Source: Escherichia phage 235Ecol030PP
DNA length: 64,000 bases
Reading direction: 5' to 3' (one strand)
Sequence record: PP355091.1
Shown here: positions 14,802 through 18,377 of the stretch, piece after piece
Layout of the letters: each line of letters begins with the position of its first letter
Position numbering within the stretch: position 1 is the first letter of the stretch
The notes under the pieces: model-generated
What the model was told of the DNA's origin: nothing
Seen by the model: the letters and a program-made list of their open reading frames with translations, nothing else
Databases searched by the model: none
Position numbers and translations under genes: made by a program

Positions 14802-14809
14802 TATTTATA
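14802..14809 (-). promoter_or_regulatory. late promoter (TATAAATA) for soc
   Basis: exact TATAAATA on minus strand ~35 nt upstream of soc ATG. Confidence 0.65.
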
Positions 14810-14951: not shown

Positions 14952-15470
14952 TTAATAACCTCGGTCTTGACGTGCGAAATTTTCAGCATTTTTCAGATAA
15001 TAAAGTTTAAAGATTTCTTCTGCTGTAAGACCAAGACCCTGGAACATATTCAGAACGAAATGAAGAATATCAATCATTTCGAATTTAATTTCCAACTGGT
15101 CTTGTGGAGACAAATCAGTAATCAGAGTTTCACGTCGTTCACCATGTTGTGCCTTCCACGGCTTCCATACACTGCTGGCGGCTTTTTCACCATTGCTCAT
15201 ACCACCAAGTGAAGTCAGCAGTTCACGGAATTCATCATCAATATAATCTTTCTGATTACGCAGCCAATCAACAACATCACCAGCAGTGGCCAATTCATCA
15301 GGATGTTTGTTATGTTTAGGCTTGTCATTTGCCAGACGAACCTGTAGAGATTTCTGCATGTCAAGCATTACCTGCAGCGGGTCTTTTTCATCACCGAGAA
15401 TATCCCAATATTCATTTTGAGCTTTATCAGCGCCTTCGATCAGATGACTACATTCGTTGAAATGTGGCAT
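14952..15470 (-). CDS. 56: dCTP pyrophosphatase (MazG-like), 172 aa
   Basis: size and position between soc and primase region; MazG-like helical fold assumed; recalled T4 gp56 ~171 aa. Confidence 0.7.
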   Translation of the reverse strand: MPHFNECSHLIEGADKAQNEYWDILGDEKDPLQVMLDMQKSLQVRLANDKPKHNKHPDELATAGDVVDWLRNQKDYIDDEFRELLTSLGGMSNGEKAASSVWKPWKAQHGERRETLITDLSPQDQLEIKFEMIDILHFVLNMFQGLGLTAEEIFKLYYLKNAENFARQDRGY

Positions 15471-15471
15471 G

Positions 15472-16122
15472 TTATTTTTCCTTTCTTATGAAGTTTTCTA
15501 TCATATGTCTATAGCAGATATTAGGATAACCTGCCTTGACAGCTATTTTATTAAATTTTGTGCGCTTAGGTCTATTATTATAAACCCACAACTCGTAAAG
15601 CGAATCATACGAATTCCATATCTCACCACGTCTTGGATTCGGTAAACCATATCGAGGTGAATTTTTACCGCTAAATCTTCCTTTTCGGGCTTTACTCATA
15701 TTAGCCTTGGCTTCATCGGATATAATTTTACCTTTATGAGCTAGACGCATTTTAGCCTTAGTTTCTTCAGGTGTTTTTAACCCCTTTATCCACGATGGTT
15801 TTCCAAACCTTGGATTATTTTCACCCGAGAAAAGAGCAGAGTTTTGGATTTTAAGAGTTTCTATTAATCTACTTGTTAATTTAACACCTTTATTATATCG
15901 CATTAAATTTACAGCATAATGCAATCCTCTCACATCTGGATATATTTTAGTTAATAATCTATGAGCTATAAAATGCTCACGCGCAGTTAACTCAACAAGA
16001 TTGTTTTTGCCATCTTCTCCTCCCATACATCTAGGAATTATATGATGGCGTTCTTTATATCCGCCAAGATTCCGGCATTTAGCTTTTGTAATTAAAGCCG
16101 AGTAAATTTTTTGGTAATTCAC
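15472..16122 (-). CDS. HNH (His-Me finger) homing endonuclease with NUMOD3-like repeats, 216 aa, GTG start
   Basis: motif ERHHIIP...N...EHFIAH; basic GK/KG repeats; C-terminal helix-turn-helix-like tail also seen in the other endonuclease ORFs in this window. Confidence 0.7.
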   Translation of the reverse strand: MNYQKIYSALITKAKCRNLGGYKERHHIIPRCMGGEDGKNNLVELTAREHFIAHRLLTKIYPDVRGLHYAVNLMRYNKGVKLTSRLIETLKIQNSALFSGENNPRFGKPSWIKGLKTPEETKAKMRLAHKGKIISDEAKANMSKARKGRFSGKNSPRYGLPNPRRGEIWNSYDSLYELWVYNNRPKRTKFNKIAVKAGYPNICYRHMIENFIRKEK

Positions 16123-16155
16123 ATATATCCTTTCAATTCATGGGTTAGTAGATTA

Positions 16156-16179
16156 ATTATACAATAAATATATAAAGCA
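16156..16179 (-). promoter_or_regulatory. MotA-box middle promoter candidate (TGCTTTA-11nt-TATAAT) upstream of the HNH gene and gene 56
   Basis: minus-strand TGCTTTA followed 11 nt later by TATAAT. Confidence 0.5.
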
Positions 16180-16192
16180 ATAAGGAGGATAT

Positions 16193-16393
16193 ATGGTACA
16201 AAAATTAATGGCACTTGTTAATGCCATCAAAGGTAATAAAAAGCGTATAGCTTTTACTATTTCTGCTATGGTAGGAATTTTACTCTGGAACTTTATTTTA
16301 TCACCTGTTGCTATTGCTCATGGCGTTAGTATTCCAGTAGTTACTCTTGATACATTCGTAGATTTAGCATTTGCTTTAGTTGGGTTAATTTAA
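16193..16393 (+). CDS. plus-strand small hydrophobic protein, 66 aa (putative 2-TM membrane peptide)
   Basis: strong SD AAGGAGG 4 nt before ATG; hydrophobic segments; lone plus-strand ORF in a minus-strand region. Confidence 0.4.
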   Translation: MVQKLMALVNAIKGNKKRIAFTISAMVGILLWNFILSPVAIAHGVSIPVVTLDTFVDLAFALVGLI

Positions 16394-17418
16394 ATCTTAG
16401 CATATTTAGATAGCCGCATTTTAGCCATTAACCCCTGGGCAATATTATTTTTCATATATTCCATAATTTGTTCAGGGGTTGCACCTTCCTTTCTAATCAT
16501 ATCATTAACATCTTTTGATTTCCAGGGAGATTTATCCCAAAACATAACCCTTTCTCCTGCATCAACTAATTTAGTCATTCGCTTAATAGTGTCAGGATGA
16601 CGAGGTTCATTATCTAAAACCCACACTCGTCTATCTTTAAATGGAACAACTTCTAGGTCTAATTGACCACCCGTAATAGCTATACCATTTTCAATAAAAA
16701 GTGAATCTATAGGTCCTTCTAGAACATATACATCGCCATCTTTAACTCGTTCGACTCCATAGATTTTTGTTGCTTCAGGATAAGCTTTGATGGTGATATA
16801 TTTTTGAGGAGCATCTTTCTTTAATGCACGTCCTTGAAAAGACTCAGCTTTTCCATTAGCATTATAAATTGGAATAACAAGACGAGGCTCAGAAATTTCC
16901 TTTTTATATGTTCCCGGTGCTATGCTATTAACCAATTTAGGCCATTCGGTTGTAAACCAAAGATATTTCCATTTATCCTTTGGAATACAACGAGCTTTTA
17001 CGTATTTTATAATTGGATGGTCTTCCGCCAATTTATCTAATCTAACGCATGACGGAAGAGATTTAATTATTTTCTTTTCAGGTTGTTTAGGAAGTTCTTT
17101 AGGTTTTTCTACTGGACGACTTTTACCTTTTTCTTTTCTTATTTCAAAGATATACTCACGATATAAATCAGGTTCAAACTCCTTTAAATATATTCCGATT
17201 GGTGCATGATAATTACAGTTATAACAATGAATATTTCCTTCATTATTATCACCATAATACCATCCACGGGCTTTATTTTGGTCGGTTTTTGAATCTCCAC
17301 ACACTGGGCATCTAAACCGTAATTTAAAAGTTGAACTATTATTTACTTGTGTGAATTTAGGTAAATGAGCTAATGCACGGTATGCAAACTCATTATCAAT
17401 CCAAGGTATTGATGACAT
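16390..17418 (-). CDS. 61: DNA primase (zinc ribbon + Toprim), 342 aa
   Basis: CPVCGD...CYNC zinc ribbon, Toprim acidic motifs; size matches gp61. Confidence 0.9.
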   Translation of the reverse strand: MSSIPWIDNEFAYRALAHLPKFTQVNNSSTFKLRFRCPVCGDSKTDQNKARGWYYGDNNEGNIHCYNCNYHAPIGIYLKEFEPDLYREYIFEIRKEKGKSRPVEKPKELPKQPEKKIIKSLPSCVRLDKLAEDHPIIKYVKARCIPKDKWKYLWFTTEWPKLVNSIAPGTYKKEISEPRLVIPIYNANGKAESFQGRALKKDAPQKYITIKAYPEATKIYGVERVKDGDVYVLEGPIDSLFIENGIAITGGQLDLEVVPFKDRRVWVLDNEPRHPDTIKRMTKLVDAGERVMFWDKSPWKSKDVNDMIRKEGATPEQIMEYMKNNIAQGLMAKMRLSKYAKI

Positions 17419-17583
17419 TTTTACTCTTCTTTTTCTTTAGATTCCTCTTTTTTCTTTTTAGGAATCTGTTCAGGACCTTTATTTACTACAGCGCCTGATG
17501 TTGTTCCAGTAGAGATATTTTCAGGACTACCACCTGAATCTCCAGCGACCATATCTTCTTTGATAAATTCTTTATATGTTTTC
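17419..17583 (-). CDS. small acidic/basic protein, 54 aa (position of T4 61.1)
   Basis: hand-translated ORF MKTYKEFIKEDM...; below track cutoff. Confidence 0.4.
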
Positions 17584-17586
17584 ATA

Positions 17587-18213
17587 TTAACCTCTATTCA
17601 TAAAAGCATTAAAAATTTGGTCATCAATAGAAACATTTGCTTTAGACTGTTTTTCGGATGGTAATTCATATCCACATATTACAATTTTATGATCAATATC
17701 AAAATACACAGAAGCAATATGATTAATGCTGTTTTCAGTAAAGTCTAAATCAACATCAATATCTTTTTGACCACAGCCCAAAGGATAAATAATGCGAGTA
17801 ATTCGATTATCTTTAACAAAGATTCCACCGACATACTCTGTGCTGCGTTTAAAGTCTACACGCCGACGAAATGAAAAATATTCAGGCTCTTTATGAGCTC
17901 GGCTCATAGGGCATAACGAATAACTAGAATAAGAGATGTCAAATCCTACGCCTTCAATATGAACTAAATTGTCATGATTAAACCAATTATAATCATATGC
18001 CAAGTCCATTAGATTGTCATATGTGAAAGGCACCGGATTAACATCATTGGTCACAAGCATATAATTAGCAACTGCTATAATTTCATTATTTTTAACGAAT
18101 ACAAACCGTGATTGATGCGAATGGCCTGGACCTGCGTTTTCACGATTAATGATATAACACTGGGCACCTTTATATTTGTATGTATCTTTGCACTTGTGCA
18201 TTTGATAAAGCAT
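17587..18213 (-). CDS. hypothetical protein, 208 aa (position of T4 61.2)
   Basis: ORF; its first 39 codons and 5' leader are duplicated in tandem upstream. Confidence 0.7.
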   Translation of the reverse strand: MLYQMHKCKDTYKYKGAQCYIINRENAGPGHSHQSRFVFVKNNEIIAVANYMLVTNDVNPVPFTYDNLMDLAYDYNWFNHDNLVHIEGVGFDISYSSYSLCPMSRAHKEPEYFSFRRRVDFKRSTEYVGGIFVKDNRITRIIYPLGCGQKDIDVDLDFTENSINHIASVYFDIDHKIVICGYELPSEKQSKANVSIDDQIFNAFMNRG

Positions 18214-18377
18214 TATTCACCTACCACTTCAGCGATCGAATACAAACCGTGATTGATGCGAATGGCCTGGACCTGCGTTTTCACGATTAATGATATAACA
18301 CTGGGCACCTTTATATTTGTATGTATCTTTGCACTTGTGCATTTGATAAAGCATTATTCACCTACCACTTCAGCGAT
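18096..18377. repeat. perfect tandem direct repeat, 2 x 141 bp (18096-18236 and 18237-18377)
   Basis: the two copies are identical base-for-base on inspection. Confidence 0.95.
18238..18354 (-). pseudogene. truncated duplicate of the 5' end of the 208-aa gene (41-codon reading frame)
   Basis: inside repeat copy 2; ATG overlaps the stop of the spackle-like gene; frame closes after 41 codons at the repeat junction. Confidence 0.6.

Follow-up and report, generated by a model that had tools for sequence, protein, structure and literature searches.

dam.1, a conserved gene for a small predicted membrane protein, lies opposite in strand to its neighbours at the gene 56-61 junction of T4-like phages

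Analysis of a 64-kb stretch of DNA from Escherichia phage 235Ecol030PP (record PP355091.1; 64,000 nucleotides, hereafter the window), which derives from a T4-like (Tequatrovirus) genome, identified dam.1, a 66-aa reading frame on the plus strand that is almost certainly a genuine gene conserved among T4-like phages. Existing catalogues list it as dam.1 and as PHROG 2024, its function being given there as unknown. Our overall account, which we consider reasonably probable, is that its product is a late-expressed, N-in, single-pass inner-membrane microprotein acting by intramembrane association. The first-pass annotation had proposed a small hydrophobic protein gene on the minority strand at this site, and such a gene is genuine: it is conserved, it evolves under purifying selection and it carries a strong Shine-Dalgarno sequence. 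Because antisense ORFs of 60-120 aa are frequent near dam.1, the length of the ORF is not significant by itself; the case for the gene is made by its Shine-Dalgarno sequence, promoter, synteny and codon-level selection. The features of the locus, in window coordinates, are as follows.

16193-16393, plus strand: dam.1 coding sequence, 66 aa, ATG start (reading frame, homology and selection)
16182-16188, plus strand: Shine-Dalgarno sequence AAGGAGG, unique in the window
16163-16170, plus strand: predicted late-promoter element AATAAATA (sequence; conserved upstream in the family)
16390-16393, no strand assigned: TTAA common to the stops of dam.1 and gene 61 (sequence)
16156-16179, minus strand: predicted MotA-box middle promoter (TGCTTTA, 11 nt, TATAAT; sequence and fPS-90 annotation)
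16205-16230, minus strand: terminator-like hairpin followed by a T-run (11-bp stem, tail TTTTTGTACC), inside dam.1 codons 5-13
16390-17418, minus strand: gene 61, DNA primase, 99.4% identical to T4 gp61
15472-16122, minus strand: HNH/NUMOD3 homing endonuclease gene (Pfam NUMOD3, E 2e-6; weak HNH match)
14952-15470, minus strand: gene 56, dCTPase, a neighbour

The reading frame proposed at first pass was confirmed, with AAGGAGG lying 4 nt before its ATG. Counted over both strands of the 64-kb window, this heptamer occurs a single time, and that copy is the dam.1 Shine-Dalgarno sequence, the strongest one of the window; each of the 14 homologous loci has GGAGG or AGGAG at a distance of 4-6 nt upstream of the ATG. 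The reported 4-nt overlap with the primase stop was likewise borne out, the TTAA holding the stop codons of both convergent genes, and the same overlap with gene 61 exists in T4, Mosigvirus, Dhakavirus, CIP9 and Gelderlandvirus. The surroundings are minus-strand, as had been stated: every neighbouring gene from 13 to 20.6 kb lies on that strand, and the minus-strand order over 14.9 to 20.6 kb is 41, dmd, 61.4, sp, 61.2, 61.1, 61, HNH/NUMOD3 and 56. Within this cluster, a perfect 141-bp tandem duplication (18096-18236 and 18237-18377), extending from the 3′ end of sp to the 5′ end of 61.2, makes an extra 41-aa copy of the 61.2 N-terminus (ORF 18229-18354); the duplication may be either real or an assembly artefact.

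Homology searches revealed a wide distribution among relatives of T4. The window protein matched 697 phage records by tblastn, and 945 records were matched with a divergent member as query. Protein identity in these searches was highest in Tequatrovirus, at 92-99% (T4, T2 and T6 among them), and fell to about 55% in Mosigvirus, to about 50% in both Gaprivervirus and Yersinia P8, and to 36% in Kanagawavirus, with the divergent query adding Dhakavirus, Jiaodavirus, other Klebsiella phages and Gelderlandvirus. At every locus fetched, dam.1 lies between genes 56 and 61, convergent with 61 and on the strand opposite to its neighbours. This synteny is kept in at least seven Tevenvirinae genera (Tequatro-, Mosig-, Gapriver-, Dhaka-, Kanagawa-, Jiaoda- and Gelderlandvirus). 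RB49 (Krischvirus) has no dam.1, its genes 56 and 61 being only 14 bp apart, and the gene therefore appears specific to Tevenvirinae.

Profile comparisons delimited the same family. The window protein matches PHROG 2024 (E 3.5e-31), its residues 2-66 aligning with positions 1-65 of the 65-position profile, and that entry carries no functional information. A family profile built here scored 79 bits on the window ORF and gave no other match in the window; no dam.1 paralogue was found when all six-frame ORFs of the window were searched with it. Among 5.8 billion proteins, the profile search returned 112 clusters, none of which bears a functional name; 107 of them are 61-74 aa long, the others are shorter fragments, and the longest contigs among them are T4-like genomes of 160-175 kb. 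A single-protein scan of IMG/VR returned five loci.

The naming of the gene is uneven across records. It is called dam.1 in T4T (HM137666; T4Tp032, ADJ39749.1) and in T6 (MH550421), where the annotated gene begins at the second Met (61 aa), and RB32ORF030w in RB51/RB32. T4 has a copy encoding a 97% identical protein, with the same position, orientation and 4-nt overlap with gene 61. Its reference records NC_000866 and AF158101 carry no dam.1 annotation; the ORF is intact at 17738-17938, within the 309 bp that separate dam from 61. dam.1 also goes unmentioned in the 1984 sequence record X01416, and the literature searched contained no publication discussing dam.1 or PHROG 2024.

Substitution patterns revealed that the dam.1 reading frame is under purifying selection. 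In five phylogenetically independent close pairs, pooled, pN/pS was 0.18 (Sd 62.5, Nd 33.5) and the differences were distributed 24/8/64 over the three codon positions (binomial p=2e-16). Four of the other five frames were neutral or worse in the same pairs, and the remaining one, an antisense frame, showed pN/pS 0.26 with an excess of synonymous changes. That frame is not open, and its signal is expected because it has its wobble position in common with the dam.1 frame. Pairwise dN/dS ranged from 0.07 to 0.4, with the exception of 0.6 in one near-identical pair, a value based on 8 substitutions.

In the family alignment, where overall identity falls to about 20%, four residues (W32, N33, P38 and A40) never vary, and conservation reaches at least 90% at G44, P48 and G64. 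The window protein carries the signature W-N-[FYL]-x(4)-P-x-A-x(3)-G-x(3)-P, lies within the 61-74 aa length range, and has W32, N33, P38, A40, G44 and P48 all in place. Across genera Dam.1 is 21-55% identical, against 60-84% for gp61 and gp56; it evolves faster than its neighbours.

The gene on the left of dam.1 varies between phages. The HNH gene found here is annotated as a homing endonuclease in relatives, among which its presence varies. The left neighbours elsewhere are as follows.

T4: dam
T2: dam and a 181-aa ORF
ELT1: HNH gene and dam
T6, Mosigvirus and three IMG/VR contigs: no left insert, gene 56 directly

In Yersinia P8 and Klebsiella Metamorpho, by contrast, it is the primase side that carries insertions. 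In the three insert-less IMG/VR loci, the upstream sequence of dam.1 matches that of the window and abuts gene 56, which indicates that the HNH gene was inserted between gene 56 and the middle promoter. A cassette with about 93% nucleotide identity is present in Klebsiella phages next to their dCTPase gene, and the similarity ends upstream of dam.1; this level of identity suggests recent horizontal spread of the HNH cassette. We also observed that no dam gene lies between 56 and dam.1 in the window, as is the case at this position in T6, and that gp56 is 74% identical to its T4 counterpart as against 99% for gp61, a sharp mosaic boundary at the 56-61 junction. dam.1 itself is most likely an ancestral resident of that junction.

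Upstream of dam.1, the element AATAAATA differs from TATAAATA in having A at -13. The consensus for T4 late promoters covers positions -13 to -6, and its most frequent variant has A at -13, as at 9 of 50 listed sites (PMC2988020, PMC1524935). Early and middle T4 transcripts all have one polarity, either strand being used by late transcripts only (PMC2988020), and a T4 transcription-start table from dRNA-seq has been published, with 150 starts of which 22 are antisense (bioRxiv 10.1101/2024.04.04.588121). Across the family (14 loci from 7 genera), 13 loci have NATAAATA at a distance of 12-22 nt upstream of the ATG, where chance would place it at about 0.01 per locus; the upstream sequences of the 14 loci are otherwise unalignable across the seven genera. 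The match to TATAAATA is perfect in two Kanagawaviruses, has one deviation at -13 in T4 (GATAAATA) and is reduced to TATTAAATA in Gelderlandvirus. Upstream regions of the T4 and T6 types diverge on either side of the box, which is retained in both together with the Shine-Dalgarno sequence.

The core ATAAATA is strongly avoided in the window, occurring 7 times against 41±6 in shuffles, a six-fold depletion (sites at 14802, 16164, 17785, 44242, 45499, 58386 and 62886). Five of the seven copies are followed, 22-31 nt further along the same strand, by a Shine-Dalgarno sequence with its ATG; the reading frames concerned are soc, dam.1, the gene 49 homologue and ORFs of 256 and 70 aa. The spacing of the dam.1 box agrees with that of soc and of the gene 49 homologue, two genes known to have late promoters in T4. 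At 17785 (+) and 62886 (+) the core is not accompanied by an obvious ORF, and these two copies may be antisense late promoters.

Since dam.1 lies on the strand used by late transcription only and has a NATAAATA box, it is expected to be expressed late only. Established T4 biology makes late expression highly probable, and the gene is presumably translated. Transcription would be carried out by RNA polymerase carrying gp55/gp33, with the gp45 clamp as activator, and would start near 16176, giving a 17-nt leader. No plus-strand terminator was found from 16393 to 17700, so the late RNA would extend into gene 61, the primase gene, in antisense orientation; this is probably a side effect.

Back to back with this late promoter, and overlapping both it and the dam.1 5′ leader, is the predicted MotA-box promoter of the minus strand. 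TGCTTTA is the complement of 16173-16179 and TATAAT that of 16156-16161; in the near-identical phage fPS-90, a predicted middle promoter is annotated at the place matching window 16156-16178. The same sequence lies directly upstream of gene 56 in relatives that have no insert, and the promoter is predicted to drive the HNH gene and gene 56 here. The first-pass annotation had recorded this promoter and described it as overlapping the dam.1 Shine-Dalgarno sequence; the promoter is present by sequence, but it stops 3 nt short of that site. The minus-strand hairpin, at whose matching place fPS-90 has an annotated terminator, would terminate gene 61 transcripts. It occurs in T4 and not in other genera; being confined to Tequatrovirus, it was rejected as a conserved family feature. 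Because it lies within codons 5-13, that part of dam.1 is under two constraints, one from the protein and one from the opposite-strand structure.

These arrangements bear on two alternative readings of the locus. The first-pass annotation had suggested that the ORF arrived with the endonuclease, and the HNH gene does adjoin dam.1 in this window; however, it does so in only 29 records, compared with about 500 Tequatrovirus records that have the ORF. The ORF is retained where there is no HNH gene, insert-less genomes have the same promoter and ORF, and the similarity of the HNH cassette in other phages stops before dam.1 is reached. With left neighbours that vary from dam to HNH, both or nothing, dam.1 is therefore not endonuclease cargo, and the probability we attach to that origin is negligible. 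It is also very improbable that a late RNA antisense to the primase mRNA is the functional product and the ORF incidental. Convergent genes, overlapping stops and the lack of a downstream plus-strand terminator in the window would all suit such an RNA, but the substitution pattern is specific to the reading frame, particular residues are invariant, and EAWsc9, P8 and Metamorpho keep the ORF despite a spacer, hairpin or gene before 61. Because phages with these interruptions retain the ORF, we treat any antisense effect as secondary to a protein-coding dam.1.

The protein has a consistent architecture across the family. A hydrophobic 19-residue window around the W-N pair (mean Kyte-Doolittle 1.65-2.64) is present in 28 of 28 members, so that Dam.1 has at least one predicted transmembrane (TM) domain, which is also a criterion for holins. 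The N-terminal net charge is +1 to +7 in 26 of 28; a basic N-terminus before the TM window leads to an N-in prediction. The tail after Gly44 comprises 19-31 residues with a conserved Pro-rich turn and an acidic residue (28 members), and its mean Kyte-Doolittle value is 1.9-2.3 in Tequatrovirus and Gaprivervirus and 1.0-1.4 in most other genera. AlphaFold2, run on the family alignment (pLDDT 74.6), modelled helices at 2-11, 15-42 and 52-63, the last of which, at 12 residues, is too short to span the membrane. The predicted layout of Dam.1, by residue, is as follows.

1-18: basic cytoplasmic N-terminus
about 19-42: TM helix
43-51: loop
52-63: C-terminal helix

Across the family, one TM helix followed by a short amphipathic C-terminal helix is more likely than two TM helices, and Dam.1 is probably single-pass and N-in. 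In Tequatrovirus and Gaprivervirus, where its mean hydropathy is highest, the C-terminal segment is hydrophobic enough that it may form a second TM helix. The two TM helices initially proposed therefore fare differently: one is robust across the family, while the other falls on a segment that is short and acidic. The protein ends in ...AFALVGLI and has tryptic sites only in its first 18 residues; the hydrophobic peptide of 48 residues left by digestion would escape standard proteomics.

Searches for a known fold or function returned the family itself. Pfam, NCBIfam, PADLOC, PDB and BFVD folds gave no match beyond family members. At E values up to 10, no holin family was found in Pfam (28 members searched) or NCBIfam (5 members), and no defence or exclusion family in PADLOC. 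A PDB profile search gave only noise at E=1 (YejA), Foldseek against viral structures recovered family members only, and Rfam yielded no credible RNA family over 15800-16800. A phmmer search of 1.84 billion representative proteins returned family members and three long repeat proteins (P0032, P0036 and P0037), of which one is PQQ-like with a recurring 'LLWNF..SSPAV.NG' and another has a repeated unit of about 70 residues. We rejected these three as spurious homologues, because their strong scores come from a short recurring motif and are summed over many repeats. The names 'Holin' and 'head morphogenesis' attached to a few records have no model support, and the 'Holin' label in particular was rejected, no Pfam or NCBIfam holin model matching.

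The toxin-like or exclusion role raised at first pass thus found no positive support in these searches, and three specific functions were weighed against the protein data. A two-TM hairpin of holin-like or toxin-like character, which would permeabilise the inner membrane, agrees with a small, hydrophobic, presumably late product, with the C-terminal 22 residues of Tequatrovirus members (mean Kyte-Doolittle near 2), and with the UniRef name 'Holin' for the OE5505 homologue and 'holin family protein' in the EAWsc9 record. We nevertheless consider it unlikely. Holin models remain silent even at E=10; the charge is at the N-terminus and the protein has a hydrophobic end in place of a charged cytoplasmic C-terminal tail; the modelled C-terminal helix has only 12 residues; and in most genera the tail is 19-23 residues long, with Kyte-Doolittle values of 1.0-1.4 and E-H, E-K or R residues. 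The genomic context is that of primase, HNH or dam, and dCTPase in every genus examined, not that of a lysis cassette, and T4 already has a characterised holin, T.

A secreted-peptide precursor, in which signal peptidase I would cut after Ala42 (P38-x-A40-x-A42|H43) to release a hydrophobic periplasmic peptide of about 24 residues, we regard as similarly improbable. The invariant Pro at -5 and Ala at -3, the A, S or T at -1 in 26 of 28 members and the basic n-region ahead of the hydrophobic stretch are what such a precursor would show, but Trp32-Asn33 is invariant in mid-core, where signal peptides are rarely so conserved, the hydrophobic stretch of about 19-24 residues has anchor length, and in two members position -1 is occupied by Met or Phe. 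In our estimate it is quite improbable that Dam.1 serves in superinfection exclusion or immunity as T4 Imm does. Dam.1 is a small inner-membrane protein by prediction, this phage group is known for exclusion, and the gene shares its early-region neighbourhood with sp. T4 superinfection exclusion, however, depends on early genes (imm, sp) and is established within minutes, whereas the plus-strand position and late-type promoter of dam.1 imply late-only expression; moreover, the profile search of six-frame ORFs in the window detected no paralogue.

The reading we prefer, a late single-pass membrane microprotein, can be laid out as a sequence of predicted steps. The 66-aa product would insert into the inner membrane N-in, with its basic amphipathic N-terminus in the cytoplasm. 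Its TM helix (about 19-42) would bear the invariant Trp32-Asn33, Pro38 and Ala40, followed by the nearly invariant Gly44, and the C-terminal amphipathic segment of about 20 residues, with its conserved acidic residue, would lie on or at the periplasmic face. A buried Asn together with a face of small residues (P-x-A...G) leads us to expect helix-helix association in the membrane. In the most speculative step, Dam.1 would act in the late phase by forming oligomers or by binding the TM segment of another membrane protein, from either phage or host.

For the purpose of such an association, lysis timing or envelope control are the leading candidates, and we put them forward only tentatively. A doubtful extension is that Dam.1 is an unrecognised late membrane effector that tunes holin T, RI or the spanins, or serves as the signal-peptidase-cleaved precursor of a peptide of about 24 residues. 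That decades of T4 genetics and omics overlooked such an effector would be explained by the omission of dam.1 from the reference annotation and by the blindness of proteomics to the peptide.

The main practical value of these results is a conserved gene that is missing from the T4 reference annotation. T4 serves as a reference organism, and most transcriptomic, proteomic and knock-down work on it uses the NC_000866/AF158101 gene list, which lacks dam.1, and the gene offers a concrete and cheap target for knock-out and topology work. It also clarifies the gene 56-61 region, in which dam.1 is the fixed resident while dam and homing endonucleases come and go around it.

Compared with known systems, dam.1 reveals no new kind of system. 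It is the same gene as dam.1 of T4T and T6, here with an HNH gene as its left neighbour instead of the dam of T4. In size, hydrophobicity and predicted inner-membrane location, Dam.1 resembles small holins (class II/III and pinholins) and Imm. It differs from small holins in having no charged C-terminal tail, no lysis-cassette context and no model match; Imm is the product of an early gene. RI is a small N-in/C-out membrane-tethered protein made late. The FVLSPSIEA of this antiholin, which has an N-terminal signal-anchor-release domain, resembles FILSPVAIA of Dam.1, but there is no detectable homology and a relationship was rejected (hhalign probability 0.3%); the RI periplasmic domain has about 70 residues, against about 20 after the Dam.1 TM helix. 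In regulatory layout, dam.1 resembles soc of T4, a late gene within the early region: in both, a TATAAATA-type box is followed at 22-31 nt by a strong Shine-Dalgarno sequence with its ATG, amid early and middle genes. The two differ in strand and product, since soc shares the strand of its early neighbours and specifies a capsid decoration protein, whereas dam.1 is on the opposite strand and encodes a predicted membrane protein.
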